From a virus (lineage: Duplodnaviria; Heunggongvirae; Uroviricota; Caudoviricetes), in IMG/VR virus record IMGVR_UViG_2600254997_000022: DNA of 20,766 nt. The stretch is one strand, 5' to 3'. Under the pieces are notes generated by a model that worked only from the letters and a program-made list of their open reading frames with translations, was not told the DNA's origin and searched no databases. Below are positions 7,805 to 16,788 of the stretch, piece by piece; the first letter of the stretch is position 1; every line of letters begins with the position of its first letter. Position numbers and translations under genes: made by a program.

Positions 7805-9114
7805 CCCTTAAGTTTTGCCTGATAGTAACTTTCCGGCAGATAGCCATGTGCGGTCACATAATCCTTAACCAGTGAAGGATCCTGCAACAGCATTTTGGTA
7901 TCAGTTTCTTCGTCCTTTGATTTGGTTACAGGAATACCGAGCCCGGCAATCTGTCGTTTCTGCATTCGAATAATTACGTCCTGCGCTTTATTCAACTCTC
8001 GCAAAAATGCCTCATTGCTGGTTGCTGACTTAATGCCATTTTGAGATTGCATAAGGGCAGCCCTTTCCCCTTCGGTTGGGTTAGAGCCAAAAGTCCCTTT
8101 GAGGCTAGGCAGAATAACCTTTAGGTTGTATTCATCAGCTTTGGCGCGTAGGCTTCGTGTGTCTTCTGCTACATCAGGAAGGAATCCAAACCCCAGCGTC
8201 AGGGGGTTATAGTTCTGCGAGCGGGTAACGGCCGAAGGATGTTTCCCTACAATTCCCGCCAGTTCATGACCCACTTCAAGCGCAGAGTTCAAGGAGTCGA
8301 TGTTACCTGCAACAGTATTAATTTTATCGTTCATCTTCTCCACTTTCGCCTGCTGTACTTTGCTCAGTTCAGCATTGAGCTTGTCTCTCTCGATGTCATT
8401 TTGAGCACGTCCAAGTCGTGCTTTCAGAACCATTTCTCTCGTGCGTAGTTGGTTATCGGATAGGACTTTGAACTGCTCCATATCGAGACGCCGATTACCC
8501 AGTTCCGCATTAACCTGAGCATTATATGCAGATGTATCTGCGTTCTGCTGTGCAATGCTCTGCCCTTGCTGCTTCTCTTGAACACTAAAGTAACTATTTG
8601 GATCAGCATGGAGGTGGATGAGGTCAGTGATTCTGTTGAATTCCTGTGGGTCATTCTGCCAAGACTGATAAACCTCTTCAGCAGGAAGACCAAATCGCTG
8701 TAATACTGGATTTGCCTGCTGAATGGCCTTCTGCATGGTCAGTGGATCTCCAGTTTGTGACGCAAGACGCAGATTCATGGCAGCGTCAGCGGTCTGTCGA
8801 TTTTGCTCAGCATCAATGAATCCCATCTGTTTTTGAGAATCAGCCATAAACTGGGGATACTGGGCCATTAACTTCTGCACGCCAACACGATCATTATTAG
8901 CTACCGCACTACCCAACCGTGCCTGATATTCTTTTAGCTGCTGGGAAATTTGCGCCTGCTGATTAATCTCAGCAACGCCTCTTAGCCCCTGTAGCGCCAT
9001 TAAACCTACGTTTGGCTGCTGCTGATACTGCACAGGCTGAGGAACGGAAGAACGAGGAGCATTATCATTTTGCGGTGCCATGCTAGGCAGCCCGCCAAGT
9101 TGCCATGTCGCCAT
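7795..9114 (-). CDS. Gln/Ala-rich coiled-coil protein, 439 aa; ejection/internal-virion-like
   Basis: Start overlaps the upstream stop (TAATG) and its stop overlaps the next start, so it is translationally coupled. Q/A-rich, low-complexity composition. Assignment is by composition and gene order only. Confidence 0.55.
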   Translation of the reverse strand: MATWQLGGLPSMAPQNDNAPRSSVPQPVQYQQQPNVGLMALQGLRGVAEINQQAQISQQLKEYQARLGSAVANNDRVGVQKLMAQYPQFMADSQKQMGFIDAEQNRQTADAAMNLRLASQTGDPLTMQKAIQQANPVLQRFGLPAEEVYQSWQNDPQEFNRITDLIHLHADPNSYFSVQEKQQGQSIAQQNADTSAYNAQVNAELGNRRLDMEQFKVLSDNQLRTREMVLKARLGRAQNDIERDKLNAELSKVQQAKVEKMNDKINTVAGNIDSLNSALEVGHELAGIVGKHPSAVTRSQNYNPLTLGFGFLPDVAEDTRSLRAKADEYNLKVILPSLKGTFGSNPTEGERAALMQSQNGIKSATSNEAFLRELNKAQDVIIRMQKRQIAGLGIPVTKSKDEETDTKMLLQDPSLVKDYVTAHGYLPESYYQAKLKGWQ

Positions 9115-9791
9115 TAGAATCCAAGCCCCCCAACAAGACCAATAAGCCCACCACCAATAGCCCCGGCGACATTACCTATACCCGGAACAACGGAACCAAG
9201 TTGCGCACCCGCTAAAGCGCCTGATGCCGCCCCACCAATACCACGCGCAAGACTGGATGGCTGCTGCGCCTGACCTGCACGAATAGCGCCAAGCCCCTGC
9301 AAGAGTTGTCCGGTATTATTGGCGTAGTTTTGCCCTGCTGTTGCCTGCCCTGATGCCGCATTCATCCCGACATTTAGCAGGTTTCCATAATTTTGCATTT
9401 GCCCACTGAGCCAATTGTTATAAAGCATGGGCGCAATGGAAGATAACTGGTTACTGGTAGCTGTTGAGCCAAGCCCCCCGGTAGCTTCTGCTGAGACAAG
9501 GTTCTGATAACGGGCCTGATCTGCCTGTGTTTTATATAAACCAGAACCAAAGAAATCATTCGCGGCTTTATTCTGCCCTTCCAGAGTCATCAGTCCTTGT
9601 AGTTGTTGTAAAGCAGGCAATCCGACTTCTGCATACGGCTTGAGATTATTCATCACCGTATTCCACTGCTCGCGCTGCAAATCAATTGCCTGCTGCTGGG
9701 CCTTCGCCTGAGCTTTAGAGGCACCACCATCACCGCCTTTTTCGTATACGGCACGATTGAGATATTTATGAGCTATATGGGTAATTAACAT
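9114..9791 (-). CDS. 225-aa protein with Gly-zipper C-terminus; ejection/internal-virion-like
   Basis: Start overlaps the upstream stop (ATGTTAA). C-terminus GIGGAASGALAGAQLGSVVPGIGNVAGAIGGGLIGLVGGLGF is a glycine-zipper/membrane-like segment. Confidence 0.55.
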   Translation of the reverse strand: MLITHIAHKYLNRAVYEKGGDGGASKAQAKAQQQAIDLQREQWNTVMNNLKPYAEVGLPALQQLQGLMTLEGQNKAANDFFGSGLYKTQADQARYQNLVSAEATGGLGSTATSNQLSSIAPMLYNNWLSGQMQNYGNLLNVGMNAASGQATAGQNYANNTGQLLQGLGAIRAGQAQQPSSLARGIGGAASGALAGAQLGSVVPGIGNVAGAIGGGLIGLVGGLGF

Positions 9792-10246
9792 TCGCTGAAT
9801 TCCTTATATTGTTGCCGAGTTAACTGATAAAGCATTACGCCGACGGGTTTACCACATCTGATATAAGCATCATCAAGGTGACCAACACGGGTAGCGCCAA
9901 GCAAACGGATAATTGCCCGTCCGTATTTGGTGGTGTCAGGAACCATGGTAATGCTGTTAAGGAATGGTGAGTTTTCGAGAAGCCATTTGCAGAATAATCG
10001 ATGCCCTTGCAGTGCATATTCACCACGGAATCCGGGGTCGTACACCGCATGGCATTCAACAATGTTATGCCAGAAGTTACGCACTTCATGAACGCCAGCC
10101 AGCACCAATCCTTCGTAGATACCGAGATATACCGCATCAGGCTTGATGTAGTACGTGTGCCCCGGCTCAACAATATTTTCGGTATTGCCAGGCTCGTTAA
10201 GAAAGGCCTGTAATCGCACAGGGTTATCAATAAATTTTAGTTCCAT
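9785..10246 (-). CDS. hypothetical protein, 153 aa
   Basis: First large ORF of the coupled operon; starts 16 bp downstream of the small upstream ORF. No domain recognised. Confidence 0.55.
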   Translation of the reverse strand: MELKFIDNPVRLQAFLNEPGNTENIVEPGHTYYIKPDAVYLGIYEGLVLAGVHEVRNFWHNIVECHAVYDPGFRGEYALQGHRLFCKWLLENSPFLNSITMVPDTTKYGRAIIRLLGATRVGHLDDAYIRCGKPVGVMLYQLTRQQYKEFSEC

Positions 10247-10262
10247 GCGATGCCATCCATTT

Positions 10263-10424
10263 TCACATACAGCCTGCCAGCGCCTTATCTATTAACCCTC
10301 GTGCAATTTCATGCAGAGTTGGCGCTACTCCAATTCCTGATTTTTTACGCTGCTCTTCCTGAATTTTCTTTATCGCTTCCATTTGCTTCTCACTTATCAA
10401 TACCGGCTTTACTGAAATAGCCAT
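10263..10424 (-). CDS. small protein, 53 aa, possible ribbon-helix-helix DNA-binding fold
   Basis: Below the ORF-track size cutoff; found by manual translation: MAISVKPVLISEKQMEAIKKIQEEQRKKSGIGVAPTLHEIARGLIDKALAGCM. GGGGG RBS 5 nt upstream. A strand-helix-turn-helix pattern is plausible but unverified. Confidence 0.35.
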   Translation of the reverse strand: MAISVKPVLISEKQMEAIKKIQEEQRKKSGIGVAPTLHEIARGLIDKALAGCM

Positions 10425-10437
10425 AACGCCCCCTTAG

Positions 10438-10463
10438 AACTGTATAAAACAACAGTTATTATA
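10438..10463 (-). promoter_or_regulatory. LexA-box-like operator AACTGTATAAAACAACAGTT adjacent to a perfect TATAAT -10
   Basis: CTGT-N8-ACAG at 10438-10457. On the minus strand TATAAT (10463..10458) directly precedes the box, which is followed by the RBS and the ATG at 10424. Confidence 0.5.
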
Positions 10464-10517
10464 GTTTCATAAATCGCAACATTCATCATCGTAATTGCAA
10501 AATATGAAACATATAGC

Positions 10518-10552
10518 ACAAAAAAATGCCACCGCTCAGTAGCTGGTGGCAT
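10518..10552 (-). terminator. strong intrinsic terminator between the replication module and the downstream operon
   Basis: 8-bp stem ATGCCACC/GGTGGCAT with an 11-nt loop, followed on the minus strand by a run of six T. Confidence 0.55.
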
Positions 10553-10872
10553 CGTTCTGTGTGTCAGGTTTTGACAGGTTTTTTATGGACTCTAAAAACT
10601 ATATTTATGGTGTCGCATTACTCTTCACGGCAGGCGCTTTTCAGTTCTGCCCTTGCTTCTGGCTCCATTGGTAATTTGATTCGCGATCAGCTATGCGGAT
10701 GGTTTGCTGAACAGGCATAACAACTTCTCAAGGGCTGTTTTCTGAACTACGAAAATTTCGTAGTGCTCACTTTCAAAAACGTCACGCCCTTGTACACAGG
10801 ATTTTACGAAAGTCTCGTAAAACACTCTCTGATGCCAGCCAGGTGTTGTGCGCATCAATTCAGTCACATTGT

Positions 10873-10974
10873 GTTGGTTCAAAATACCGTGTTGTTGGTT
10901 CAGTGTTGGTTCAATAAAAAGAATAAAATCCTTATAAAACAATACCCTTTATAAATTGAACCAACTGAACCAAC
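10873..10974. repeat. iteron array B: GTTGGTTCA at 10873, 10894, 10905 and tandem TGAACCAAC at 10957, 10966
   Basis: Begins 26 bp after the primase stop. Inverted, ~75% identical copy of module 1045-1165, including the shared spacer AATTT(A/G)TAAAG(G/A)GTATTGTTTT. Confidence 0.75.
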
Positions 10975-10999
10975 ACCTTTTCTACGCACATGAAGAAGC

Positions 11000-13759
11000 T
11001 CATTCTTCAGATGAGTTGTAATCTCCTGGCTGGTAATTGAGTACATAAACGTTTATTTGTCGTCCCTGAATACGTGGTGATTTTCTTTGGTATCCACGAC
11101 CGCTGTTTGGTGGGGTTAGCATCCCGGCTTTTTTCAACACTTCAGCAAACTGTTTTGCGTTGAAACCACATGCGATCTCCTTTTCAAATGTGGCCGGGAA
11201 TGTGTAGAAAATCATTGGGCTTTCGTCATGTTCTCCACGCTGACGGTATCCGGCTAAATCTTTGATGGGCAAATCTGCCGGGCTGTATGGAAATGGTGCA
11301 AAACGGCTAAGCCCATAGGCATTAAGAAATGCCTCCGTTTGTTCAATAATCTGCTGATGTTCTTTGTTACCTGTGCCGAACTCGCGCAACCATGCGTTAT
11401 AGCTGTGCTGTATCGCATCACGGCATGTCTGAGCATCCCAGCCTGTTACAACCTCGCCTAACAGCAATGCGGCCTCCAGAATGGCAAATCGCGCGGCTAC
11501 ACGGTGAACCTGCTCACCATAATCGGATGGGATCAGACTTCTCCATCTGCTTTCGCGGTCACGAACAGTTTTAATTGCCTGTTGCTGGTGGTCTGCCAGC
11601 CATTTAATCCACTCACGCCCGGCTGCGCCGTGGTGATGCTGGTAAGCGTCTTTCAGTGCGTCTGCGTGCTGTTTTCCGTTCTGGTAATCGTGAAAGCGTA
11701 CTGCTTTACTCAACGGAATATTCAGCAGTCGCACCAGTTGCCCGGCTTTGGTTTTTCGCCCGGAAGTAGCGATAAATGTTTCTAAATCCATTTCTCCGGT
11801 GCTGATTGCCACTGTACGCCAGCGTTTTAGATCCCGGTTTCCACCATCTTTAGCGCCTTGCAGTTTCCCTACACCGTTAAATAACGCATAGGCAGACTGT
11901 GAAACACTGACAGGATCAGCGCCCTGACCAACTTCATCAAGCGGCATTAGTCCGTCATTGTGGGCGGCAGCTTCATTTGCCAGCCCCAGCGCGGTTCCGT
12001 ACCACGTCAGCCGCAGTAAATCAGGGTTGCCGTATAAGCTGCTCGCCACGTTTGCCGTGGTGGTCTTACCTGCGCTCGACTGCTCATAGAAATGAATGCC
12101 GAACCCGTCAGCGCCCACCAGCCCAATCAATGGCGCTGCCAGTGCTGCGCCGATCCCGGTCATCATTGAATAGTTACCAAAGGCCAGACGCGCCACGTTA
12201 TCACGCCAGCTTTTCGCGCTCCCTGAGACGGTATATCCGGCTGCGGCTGAGCTTCTCCCGCTGAACAGCACAGGATTTTCAGGTGTTCCGATGATTTCCC
12301 CATCAGGCATGATGTACGCTCCGCATTGCCAGCCAGTGGCATGAGCAACACGCCACAATTCACGAGAGCCACTGCGTTGTAGCCAGTCTGCCAGTATTGC
12401 TCTGAGGCTGCTTTTGGTCGTGACATTTACCCCACCAGCTTTAAGTGTGCGCCATCCTTCACGTTCACCAATATCAGCCAGTGGAATGGCAGCGGTTGTC
12501 GGCGTTTCAGAACCAAACGACAGCCAGCGAAGAATGAGATACTGGTCTTTATCGTCTCTGCCAGTACCGATAACGCTTAACGGAGAACATAACCAGCTTT
12601 CGTTATTGATGATTTCTCCACTCTGGCTGTCAGCTCTCGGAGATACCCAATAAATACCATCCTCGCGGCTTTCTATTCTTGGTTTCAGTGGGTCGGTATC
12701 CATAACCTTAAAATCGCTTCCCTCAATGGTCTGTGGCTCCTGTTTCACGCCATTACCCTGTGGTTGGTACATTGACTTATTGAACGCTTCTGTGGCGCAT
12801 TTAATGCCGTGTTTTTGGTGGTAATCATTCCAGTCTGCTTTGTGATCTGTCGGGGGTAATGCCACCCATCCAGAAACAGATAAAGCTGCTTTTTCTGCTG
12901 CTCTTCTCCCCGTGTTTTGTCTTCCTTCGCTGTGGTCGTTATCCGCAGCAATGATGATTTGTGCTGAAGGAAATTTATCCCGCAGTACCTGGGCGACATA
13001 TAACAGGTTCCCGGCATCAATCGCCGCCACTGTCAGCGCCTCTGGGCGAATTAAATGGGCAGATAATGCCGTTGCCAGCCCTTCTGCGATTAAGATGCTC
13101 TGTGTTGTTTCTGGTGCGTTTATGGCGTGATATGCCCCTCGCTTTGCTGAACCTGTCAGGAGTCTTTTTTCACCATGTGAGGTAATAGTCTGTGCTGCTG
13201 TGACTGCGCCGGATTTATCCACCAGCGCCAGCAACAGAGATCCATCGGGCAACACGGGGAATGTAAAATCACCTACCCCTTTCGCAACCAGATAATCAGA
13301 TTTGCCGTTTACAGCCTTTCTGCGCATGTCATCAAACTGACGGGAAAACGTATCCCGTCTTTGTTGTTCGTCCTTCTCTGCCCTTTTCAGGCGCTCCTGT
13401 TCGCGTCGCTGGCGCTTGGTTTCCAGTTGTTCCCGTTTCTGGCTGGTGGCTTCTGGTGTTTCCGTTGTCCGGTAATCAATACCCAGAACATCAGCGGCAA
13501 GAAGCGCCGCCTCTGTTGTGTCGCAGTTATTTACGCGTTTAATTAAATCCAGCCCATCACCAGCGCCGCACTGATTACAGATGAAGCTACCGCGCCCGTT
13601 GTCATCGAACCGGAATCGATCTTTTCCCCCACATGCAGGGCAGGGAGCATGACGGCGCGGAGAGTCAGGGACATTTATGTTCAGGCAGCCCAGCACATGA
13701 GGCCAGTTGTTTTCAGACGCACTGATAACCTGACGGATAAGATCAATGTTTCGCATCAC
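11000..13759 (-). CDS. primase-helicase (zinc-ribbon + TOPRIM + P-loop NTPase), 919 aa
   Basis: Zinc ribbon CPACGG..FICNQCG near the N-terminus, TOPRIM-like LIAEGLATA...AADNDH, Walker A SSAGKTT. The first codon at 13759 is GTG; the ATG at 13756 is the likelier start. Confidence 0.85.
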   Translation of the reverse strand: MMRNIDLIRQVISASENNWPHVLGCLNINVPDSPRRHAPCPACGGKDRFRFDDNGRGSFICNQCGAGDGLDLIKRVNNCDTTEAALLAADVLGIDYRTTETPEATSQKREQLETKRQRREQERLKRAEKDEQQRRDTFSRQFDDMRRKAVNGKSDYLVAKGVGDFTFPVLPDGSLLLALVDKSGAVTAAQTITSHGEKRLLTGSAKRGAYHAINAPETTQSILIAEGLATALSAHLIRPEALTVAAIDAGNLLYVAQVLRDKFPSAQIIIAADNDHSEGRQNTGRRAAEKAALSVSGWVALPPTDHKADWNDYHQKHGIKCATEAFNKSMYQPQGNGVKQEPQTIEGSDFKVMDTDPLKPRIESREDGIYWVSPRADSQSGEIINNESWLCSPLSVIGTGRDDKDQYLILRWLSFGSETPTTAAIPLADIGEREGWRTLKAGGVNVTTKSSLRAILADWLQRSGSRELWRVAHATGWQCGAYIMPDGEIIGTPENPVLFSGRSSAAAGYTVSGSAKSWRDNVARLAFGNYSMMTGIGAALAAPLIGLVGADGFGIHFYEQSSAGKTTTANVASSLYGNPDLLRLTWYGTALGLANEAAAHNDGLMPLDEVGQGADPVSVSQSAYALFNGVGKLQGAKDGGNRDLKRWRTVAISTGEMDLETFIATSGRKTKAGQLVRLLNIPLSKAVRFHDYQNGKQHADALKDAYQHHHGAAGREWIKWLADHQQQAIKTVRDRESRWRSLIPSDYGEQVHRVAARFAILEAALLLGEVVTGWDAQTCRDAIQHSYNAWLREFGTGNKEHQQIIEQTEAFLNAYGLSRFAPFPYSPADLPIKDLAGYRQRGEHDESPMIFYTFPATFEKEIACGFNAKQFAEVLKKAGMLTPPNSGRGYQRKSPRIQGRQINVYVLNYQPGDYNSSEE

Positions 13760-16124: not shown

Positions 16125-16281
16125 GTGGCAGCCTCCTTGTACTGGGAATTCTTCCCACCACCGGAGCTGCGAAACTCGCTGGTGGTGGACTGAACAGAGT
16201 TCGCAGTACCGGCGTACAAGGAAACCGGCCAGCCTTTCGGCTGCCCTGTCCAGCCCACCATAATTTTACAAGCGACGCGGA

Positions 16282-16788
16282 TTATAACCACATCACCGAA
16301 AAAAGTGTGAGTCTGGCTAACGGCACAGAAAAAGACGCTCGGCGCGTCCATGTGTCGCCTCGTACATTTCCGGGCTTGCGAAACCCGGCACCCGTTTTAT
16401 GAGGTGCCTTATAACCATAAACCGTGTTGCCGCATAACGGCAAGCTCTTTTTTATGGACTCCGAAAACTCACTATTGGAAGAACCAGAAGCACAGTACAT
16501 CGCGCTCATTTCGTTAACGTCACGCGCGTAGACGAATGTTTTTGTGGAGTCACTACACGAGCAGAACAGGTGATCTACGACCAGAAATTCTCTGGCGCAG
16601 CCGCTGACCTTCTCAACGCTAACACCATCGACCGTAATTTCTGACATAGTTAAGGCATCCGCTCCTACCACCAGCAAATGATAAACTTTGCTTGTATCTG
16701 CTATATTAATGTCTGACTTTGCTGTCATATTGCTGGATTTTGGCGACATACCAGCCAGTGAAAATATCTTCTTCTGGGCGGTTAGCAT
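16282..16788 (-). CDS. hypothetical Cys-rich protein, 168 aa (C-terminal part doubtful)
   Basis: GGAGG RBS, and the start overlaps the upstream stop (ATGCTAA). The 3' third runs through hairpin-rich sequence with atypical composition. Confidence 0.4.

Follow-up and report, generated by a model that had tools for sequence, protein, structure and literature searches.

A probable SaPI/PICI-type replication origin directly downstream of the primase gene of an EcCIMP1-like island in E. coli

In an EcCIMP1-like phage-inducible chromosomal island (PICI), an array of 9-bp iterons directly follows the gene of a primase-helicase (Pri-Rep). This array probably serves as the origin of replication, either whole or as the gene-proximal half of an origin in two parts. 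The window analyzed, namely, the whole stretch of 20,766 nucleotides in the IMG/VR record IMGVR_UViG_2600254997_000022, comprised an island located between yicC and dinD of E. coli. This assignment is based on how the array (referred to as array A) is built and how well it is conserved, on its constant location behind the gene, on co-variation between the iteron and a loop of the protein, and on the homologies of the protein itself. Judged from the sequence, the array would be an origin of the SaPI/PICI type, a known design and not a new kind, and it provides a concrete candidate origin for EcCIMP1-type islands, which are widespread in E. coli. A second, inverted array (array B) was found on the other side of a variable cargo segment; it had been missed by the initial annotation, which described a single array. 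The features of the window are listed in Table 1.

Table 1. Positions of the two iteron arrays, the pri-rep gene, and adjacent features in the window.
Feature	Position	Strand	Basis or remark
perC-family gene, directly outside array B	721..1008	-	
Array B, tandem set, three head-to-tail iterons	1045..1071	+	36 bp from the perC start codon
Array B, spacer, 43 bp, 77% A+T	1072..1114	.	Iteron-proximal 21 nt within the 39-nt stretch shared with array A
Array B, spaced set, three inverted iterons, spacing of 21 and 21 bp	1115..1165	-	
Cargo segment between arrays B and A	1166..10872	.	Pfam; annotation of L001 and EcCIMP1
Array A, distal set, three iterons, opposite orientation	10873..10913	+	Iterons 98-99% conserved, gaps 51-88%
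Array A, spacer, 43 bp, presumed melting site	10914..10956	.	Contains the conserved sub-motif TTGTTTTATAAGG
Array A, proximal set, two head-to-tail GTTGGTTCA	10957..10974	-	96% conserved, 39 relatives
Linker of 25 nt, stop codon to array A	10975..10999	-	Carries a partial palindrome
Pri-Rep gene, 919 aa: zinc ribbon, Toprim primase, DUF927 helicase, C-terminal winged helix (predicted)	11000..13759	-	Pfam, PDB sequence matches
Predicted C-terminal winged-helix domain, about residues 845-909	11033..11227	-	AlphaFold2 model, Foldseek
Coding region of the wing loop Y890-I897 (YQRKSPRI)	11069-11092	-	Co-varies with the iteron sequence

Array A and the Pri-Rep protein

Array A (10873-10974) consisted of five exact copies of the 9-bp unit GTTGGTTCA in two orientations, starting at 10873, 10894, and 10905 on the + strand and at 10957 and 10966 on the - strand. 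The five copies of this sequence or its complement, already counted in the initial annotation, were confirmed as exact and far above chance: 11 exact copies were found in the 20.7-kb window, against 0.14 ± 0.35 expected from dinucleotide-preserving shuffles, by which a chance origin was ruled out, and all 11 were confined to two clusters. The reported distance of 26 bp from the primase stop was also correct: 25 nt intervened between the stop codon (11000-11002) and the array, the first iteron base being the 26th. In the direction of the primase gene, the array began with two copies arranged head to tail at 9-bp spacing, after which came the spacer and then three inverted copies with spacings of 11 and 21 bp. 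The A+T content of the spacer was 84%, against 52% in the window. Copy numbers of the proximal set differed elsewhere: three in EcCIMP1 and seven in locus L061.

The array A region was matched in about 470 of 5426 complete E. coli genomes. In 39 relatives from different genera with the same iteron class (class 1), the iterons were 96-99% identical to those of the window, against 57-61% identity across the linker, the spacer, and the last part of pri-rep, and 26% in the downstream flank. Three smaller elements were observed in and around the array. The sub-motif TTGTTTTATAAGG was ~80-90% conserved in these 39 relatives, while the remaining spacer varied; it could be where melting or priming preferentially occurs, a site for a host factor, or an element resembling a -10 box. 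A palindrome of the CACATGTG/CTCACATGTGAG type, partial in the window, was located between the stop codon and the first iteron and was common to several iteron classes (L012, L018, L041, and others). A CTGGCTGG(C/T) box, found 30-40 bp past array A (about 10830-10842 in the window), was conserved in compact and split loci, and the cargo started just after it; this box was a full Chi site in L034 and L060, and L003 had a Chi site in the spacer of array B.

Pfam matches in Pri-Rep were PF08273, PF13362, and PF06048 (DUF927; E value of 3.5e-47). Since Pfam found only the zinc ribbon, Toprim, and DUF927, membership in the WH1-WH2 Rep initiator family was rejected. Residues 8-362 showed 33% identity to the primase part of P4 alpha (E value of 5e-42), and no similarity to P4 alpha was found outside these residues. 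Among PDB sequences, the DUF927 part matched a staphylococcal "pathogenicity island protein" (8tch; 1e-11) and Cch of SCCmec (5dgk). In an AlphaFold2 model of the last 300 residues, with pLDDT values of 85-96 across the last 120, the C-terminus was composed of a helical bundle followed by a strand-helix-helix-hairpin arrangement, namely, a predicted winged helix. The best Foldseek matches were Cch (5dgk; E value of 7e-5 over 232 columns) and TcpK (5vfx), a winged-helix protein whose structure was solved on oriT DNA. Cch is described as a DUF927 relative of the SaPIbov1 Rep helicase (PMC7581432).

A scan of one genome per species yielded 77 loci encoding relatives of Pri-Rep, with identities of 51-99% in Enterobacterales and about 30% outside; in each locus, the array was called from the 8-mer with the most copies within 350 nt downstream of the stop codon, and 63 loci were evaluable. 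An array of the same design started 23-47 nt after the pri-rep stop in 58 of these 63 loci, from many Enterobacterales genera: 1-7 copies (mostly 2-3), a spacer of ~50 bp, and 3-4 inverted copies spaced by about 11 and 21 bp. In three of the five exceptions, the gene was truncated or rearranged or the contig was very short; the other two were divergent homologues (51% and 29%) without an array. The same design was present next to a 30%-identical homologue from Desulfohalobiaceae, and the genes for 33-43%-identical, full-length homologues in records of 7-10.5 kb (small circular or linear) were followed by inverted sets of iterons (CTTATCCCA and CTGGTAACA). Among the window genes tested, the primase was present in all of the array loci, while antA, orf113, and perC were each missing from many, and the integrases of these loci were of different types. 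This recurrence, together with a helicase of the SaPI-Rep/Cch type, supports by comparison the candidate origin that was initially proposed.

The iteron sequence of array A was specific to the Rep allele, and ten iteron classes paired one-to-one with ten C-terminal motifs in 59 loci (Table 2). Outside the tail, class-2 and class-7 proteins were 0.73-0.81 identical to the window protein, which falls inside the range of class 1 itself (0.62-0.99), whereas their tails and iterons differed from those of class 1; therefore, the co-variation goes beyond overall divergence. Between classes 1 and 2, the sole consistent difference in the last 125 residues was a loop: RKSPRI versus GRV-RE. In the model, this loop was positioned between the second helix and the terminal β-strand, which corresponds to the wing. 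The C-terminal domain, regarded from the outset as the likely binder of the array, is thereby favored on comparative grounds, the iterons co-varying with a six-residue wing loop even at a remaining identity of ~80%. On the other hand, the tail-coding region is 25 bp from array A, and the co-variation could partly reflect linkage in one recombination cassette; a reading based on linkage alone is weakened because array B, kilobases away, always matches too. The ten iterons and ten wing loops constitute a natural specificity series, in which two members differ by few residues and few bases. This series could show how a winged helix of the SaPI-Rep type reads DNA, and help to build orthogonal replicons.

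Table 2. Iteron classes and the wing-loop/tail motifs of the corresponding Pri-Rep proteins.
Iteron	Wing-loop/tail motif
GTTGGTTCA	QRKSPR(I/V)
GTTGTCTCA	QGRV-RE
TCGGTTCA	QRKTPRI
GTCGGTTCA	TRK(T/S)LRI
ACGGGTTA	K(R/K)KAL(K/R)..GGKQH
CTTATCCCA	WQIRTPRLKH
GGTCGGTT, GTCGGGTA, GTGGGTTA, CAGGGGCA	Four further classes, each with its own distinct tail

Comparison with known origins

SaPI origins contain 6-12 short iterons immediately downstream of rep around an AT-rich center, with at least two iterons on each side in opposite directions, which are recognized by the C-terminal winged helix of Rep; Rep is thought to load as two hexamers, melting the center of the origin (PMC9371898; PMC7581432). The origins of Gram-negative PICIs have the same design, and a pri-rep-ori fragment of EcCICFT073 maintains a plasmid (PMC6092414). 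Every sequence-level feature of this family was found in array A. As in SaPIbov1 and SaPI1, the iterons were located directly 3' of the initiator gene, and two opposed sets flanked an AT-rich center. Pri-Rep also resembled SaPI Rep in its predicted self-loading helicase of the DUF927 type, its C-terminal winged helix, and the specificity of the iterons for the Rep allele; the fusion to a primase is sometimes found in SaPIs. The differences from SaPIs were the length of the iterons (9 bp, against 5-6 bp in SaPIs), the Gram-negative host, the Toprim primase of the P4-alpha type, and the second inverted array kilobases away, for which no SaPI description was found.

EcCICFT073 and EcCIRM13514 shared with the window int, alpA, pri-rep, ori, accessory genes, and perC, as well as an iteron/AT-rich origin after pri-rep, and EcCIRM13514 occupies the same yicC-dinD site. 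However, their Pri-Rep proteins were unrelated in sequence to that of the window, their iterons were CTGTCTACC (EcCICFT073) and TGTTCACC (EcCIRM13514), and their iteron clusters were contiguous (about 230-250 bp), whereas those of the window were split by cargo. When the Pri-Rep of EcCICFT073 was compared with that of the window, no homology was found, and a relationship to this tested protein was rejected; because the two are not homologous, the experiment on EcCICFT073 supports the design only, and not the window protein. EcCIMP1 had almost the same gene order as the window, with antA, DUF4222, ash, a TOPRIM-DUF927 primase, DUF2824 and ejection proteins, a second alpA, and perC, and both arrays were present (3+3 and 3+3 copies); it differed in the integrase, in the attachment site (tRNA-Thr/proA-yagU, against yicC-dinD in the window), and in having no IS3 insertion. 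Neither an origin nor iterons are mentioned in the EcCIMP1 paper (PMC11773190). Our literature search, largely outside subscription journals, found no split or duplicated iteron arrays in PICIs, and no origin for a Gram-negative Pri-Rep of the DUF927 type. Cch (5dgk), the protein structurally closest to the last 230 residues of the model, is also a DUF927 helicase, but has no fused Toprim primase. In the available part of PMC7581432, no iteron origin is reported for Cch, and the SCCmec iterons described belong to Cch2.

The initial annotation had drawn on the P4 alpha protein and its iteron-containing ori as an analogy. This stood for the N-terminal third of the protein, a homologous zinc-ribbon/Toprim primase, and for the layout: P4 also has an iteron cluster 3' of the gene and a second one kilobases away, and its unit is built from two adjacent copies, a spacer of ~35-43 bp with ~70-84% A+T, and inverted copies. 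It did not stand for the helicase and DNA-binding domains, which were not homologous, or for the site itself, since the gene-proximal array of P4, located 46 bp 3' of alpha (4291-4590), is crr and not the start site, and ori, with the same iterons, is 4.7 kb away (9086-9809). Furthermore, crr is composed of two direct 120-bp repeats, and the P4 iteron is TGTTCACC, against GTTGGTTCA in the window. Membership in the P4 alpha family was rejected: the primase third alone was homologous, and neither the helicase/C-terminal part nor the type 1 iteron TGTTCACC was found. Because of this limited homology, the SaPI/PICI origin is a better analogue than the ori of P4. A classical iteron plasmid origin (RepA/pi/TrfA) was also rejected, since direct repeats of 17-22 bp in one orientation, beside DnaA boxes and an AT-rich region, are expected there, and the units in the window were 9 bp long and in two orientations. 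No DnaA box (with one mismatch or less) was found within 1 kb of either array, and their number in the window corresponded to chance.

By analogy with work on SaPIs and PICIs, from which binding, melting, loading, and priming are inferred, induction by a helper phage would lead to the binding of the 9-bp iterons by Pri-Rep via the wing of its C-terminal winged helix. Assembled as hexamers on the two opposed iteron sets, Pri-Rep would melt the AT-rich spacer that separates these sets. Self-loading of the DUF927 helicase would follow, and the host polymerase would start synthesis from primers made by the fused Toprim primase.

The second array and alternative functions

Array B (1045-1165) contained six exact copies of GTTGGTTCA, three in tandem and three spaced and inverted, and was an inverted copy of array A at a distance of 9.8 kb in the window. 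The stretch shared by the two arrays (39 nt, 95% identity as the reverse complement) included two iterons plus 21 nt of spacer sequence. Array B is characteristic of the family and not peculiar to the window. The two arrays were adjoining in about 30 relatives (35-45 bp), and their distances in other relatives were 0.57, 1.1, 2.2, 4.8, 5.9, 6.8, 7.2, 8.4, 8.8, and 9.0 kb; the distance was 1.8 kb in the circular record L083 and 8.4 kb in EcCIMP1. The iteron class of array B was always that of array A, including in loci outside class 1. In 11 loci with the full 10 kb of downstream flank, array B was not found, and it may be further away or absent there. When the island ends (att repeats) were sought in loci with array A only, in order to see whether array B is dispensable, only a few matches were obtained with exact repeats and with the att core GAGCAGATTCAA from the literature.

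In the window, array B was situated in a divergent region between perC and small genes on the + strand. Two copies of a direct repeat, GTAAGACA, were observed on the inner side of array B in L012, L018, L020, L026, L059, and L060, beside a conserved gene of 132-153 aa (MSKSLSVTFRVPAEL...) transcribed inward. A Pfam search with the product of this gene gave no match; it is possibly a ribbon-helix-helix regulator with the GTAAGACA repeat as its operator.

Array B is presumably bound by the same Pri-Rep as array A, and could be a second origin, a partner of array A similar to crr in P4, a copy-control site, or an operator. We tentatively consider, on the model of ori and crr, both required in cis in the P4 replicon, that arrays A and B may form one two-part origin, with both halves bound by Pri-Rep and looped or fired together; this is possible rather than probable. 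If so, the cargo slot, with its helper-matched DNA-delivery proteins, toxins, and defense genes, would lie inside the origin, the tolerance of 0-10 kb of cargo would be due to the initiator, by which the two halves still find each other, and replication or copy control of the island would need array B in cis.

The most serious rival for array A, although unlikely in our estimation, is an accessory cis site similar to crr of P4, or a copy-control/handcuffing site, which would be bound by Pri-Rep while replication starts at array B, as in P4, or elsewhere. P4 has the same geometry (crr 3' of alpha and initiation at a distant ori) and is the only system with a primase domain homologous to that of Pri-Rep, and the spacer of array B in the window is AT-rich as well. 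On the other hand, an array directly 3' of rep is the origin in SaPIs and in the tested PICIs, and the helicase and DNA-binding parts found here are of that type. In addition, the spacer of array B was GC-rich in many compact relatives, whereas that of array A was AT-rich in every locus examined, and at least 11 loci showed no array B within 10 kb. A less likely reading is that the arrays are transcriptional operators, by which a regulator (possibly Pri-Rep) would control two units directed into the enclosed segment, plus perC. Consistent with this, both arrays face inward to convergent gene sets, a conserved TATAAG-like motif is present in the spacer of array A, and a conserved TATATAG-like box was found past the outer edge of array B, 20-30 bp before perC or other genes. 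However, a promoter scan revealed no sigma-70-like site in either array region, and an intrinsic terminator and a separate promoter are located between array A and the cargo operon: a terminator-like hairpin with a U-tract at 10543-10528 (- strand), about 330 nt downstream of array A, and TATAAT with a LexA-type box (ACTGT-N8-ACAGT) at 10439-10456, upstream of the small gene that opens the ejection-protein operon. Because these elements intervene, array A is not needed as the promoter of this operon. Moreover, the downstream genes varied among loci while the array stayed at the primase stop codon, and no other regulator was common to all loci.

It is very improbable that the inverted repeats act as a hairpin in RNA or single-stranded DNA that ends or stabilizes the pri-rep transcript. 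The transcript was predicted to fold into a long hairpin at -39.5 kcal/mol (z = -3.4), but the arms are asymmetric, with contiguous 9-bp repeats opposite copies spaced by 11 and 21 bp, and the stem has no U-tract, the canonical terminator being the one further on. No Rfam family was found in or near the array (matches with E < 1 were generic hairpins to miRNA models), the co-variation with the protein loop would be left unexplained, and array B follows no primase gene. We give the least weight of all to recombination or packaging (pac) sites that would bound an exchangeable or invertible cargo cassette, in spite of the fact that the arrays are inverted repeats bracketing a segment of variable length and content. 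Neither a recombinase nor a terminase traveled with the arrays, arrays separated by about 40 bp with nothing between them were common, and no inversion of the enclosed segment was observed, its orientation being the same in the window, L001, EcCIMP1, and L083. The co-variation also points to Pri-Rep.

The island, its cargo, and a circular relative

On the - strand, the island was arranged in the order of integrase, AlpA-like HTH, antA antirepressor, DUF4222, ash, small genes, primase, and array A, followed by a P22-type ejection-protein operon, a lipoprotein, small + strand genes, array B, and perC. The features that mark a PICI were found by synteny with EcCIMP1, namely, int, alpA, a unidirectional operon, a PICI attachment site, and the accessory gene perC, and on this basis the window was assigned to the EcCIMP1-like PICIs. 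The yicC-dinD site is a listed PICI attachment site. EcCIMP1 is excised and transduced upon induction of the P22-like phage Kapi1, and islands of its type were described as "type C" PICIs that are not confidently annotatable (PMC11773190).

The cargo between the arrays was compared in the window, L012, L018, L020, L026, L034, L054, L059, L060, and L061. In the window, it comprised DUF2824, gp7-like, and gp20-like genes, an SLT/gp16-like gene split by IS3, a lipoprotein gene, and small + strand genes including a second AlpA-like HTH. Other loci carried tape-measure proteins (L018 and L054), SLT proteins (L020 and L059), or a Dit-like protein, a baseplate hub, and a gpV-type spike (L034); Fic, the P4 "Beta protein", a MazF-like toxin, a Tlde1 domain, ProQ, and SSB were also found between the arrays. 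The position of perC was outside array B in E. coli and directly after array A in loci of the Pantoea/Erwinia type. From this gene content, the gap between the arrays behaves as a cargo slot of EcCIMP1-like islands, and split arrays with variable cargo between them point to where accessory genes enter satellites. The virion parts for DNA delivery would suit helpers of different types, and the satellites may themselves bring ejection or tail parts matched to their helpers. The IS3 copy (5919-7229) had 25-nt inverted ends, orfA/orfB, and an ALIL frameshift pseudoknot (6254-6370); the SLT/gp16-like gene that it splits in the window was intact (2721 nt) in strain 214-4 and EcCIMP1.

Two copies of ACTGT-N8-ACAGT were present in the window: the one upstream of the ejection-protein operon, and another at 71-88 before the chromosomal SOS gene dinD. 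Operon I of SaPIs is controlled by LexA. The cargo operon in the window may likewise be under SOS control, as suggested by the box.

A whole related island was found in L083 (NZ_CP148430.1), a circular record of 12,152 bp deposited as a plasmid, which contained int, antA, a 99.5%-identical primase, both arrays, and perC. No other replication gene was annotated in this record, and no typed plasmid replicon was present. These results suggest that L083 is an extrachromosomal form of the island in that strain; it could also be an excised, non-replicating form.

The Chi sequence GCTGGTGG occurred at 17 sites (e.g., 845, 1200, 10542, 11584, and 16178) on the two strands of the 20.7-kb window, where shuffles predicted 0.64. 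One of them was contained in the stem of the terminator-like hairpin (10528-10543), and a possible ORF of 25 codons was located between this hairpin and array A. The density of Chi was 0.8-1.0 per kb in four E. coli PICIs (the window, EcCIMP1, EcCICFT073, and EcCIRM13514), whereas neighboring DNA outside the PICIs had about 0.1-0.2 per kb and P4 had none. No report of Chi enrichment in PICIs was found in the literature searched. Dense Chi may shield the island from RecBCD when its DNA is linear or concatemeric.

Rfam matches above the gathering score were obtained for the C4 antisense RNA (16178-16265) and isrK (16328-16407), both on the - strand and beside icd/ash. Based on these matches, this stretch is assigned as an RNA immunity module of the P1/P7/P4 type inside the island, and a 210-aa ORF listed across it is probably not real.
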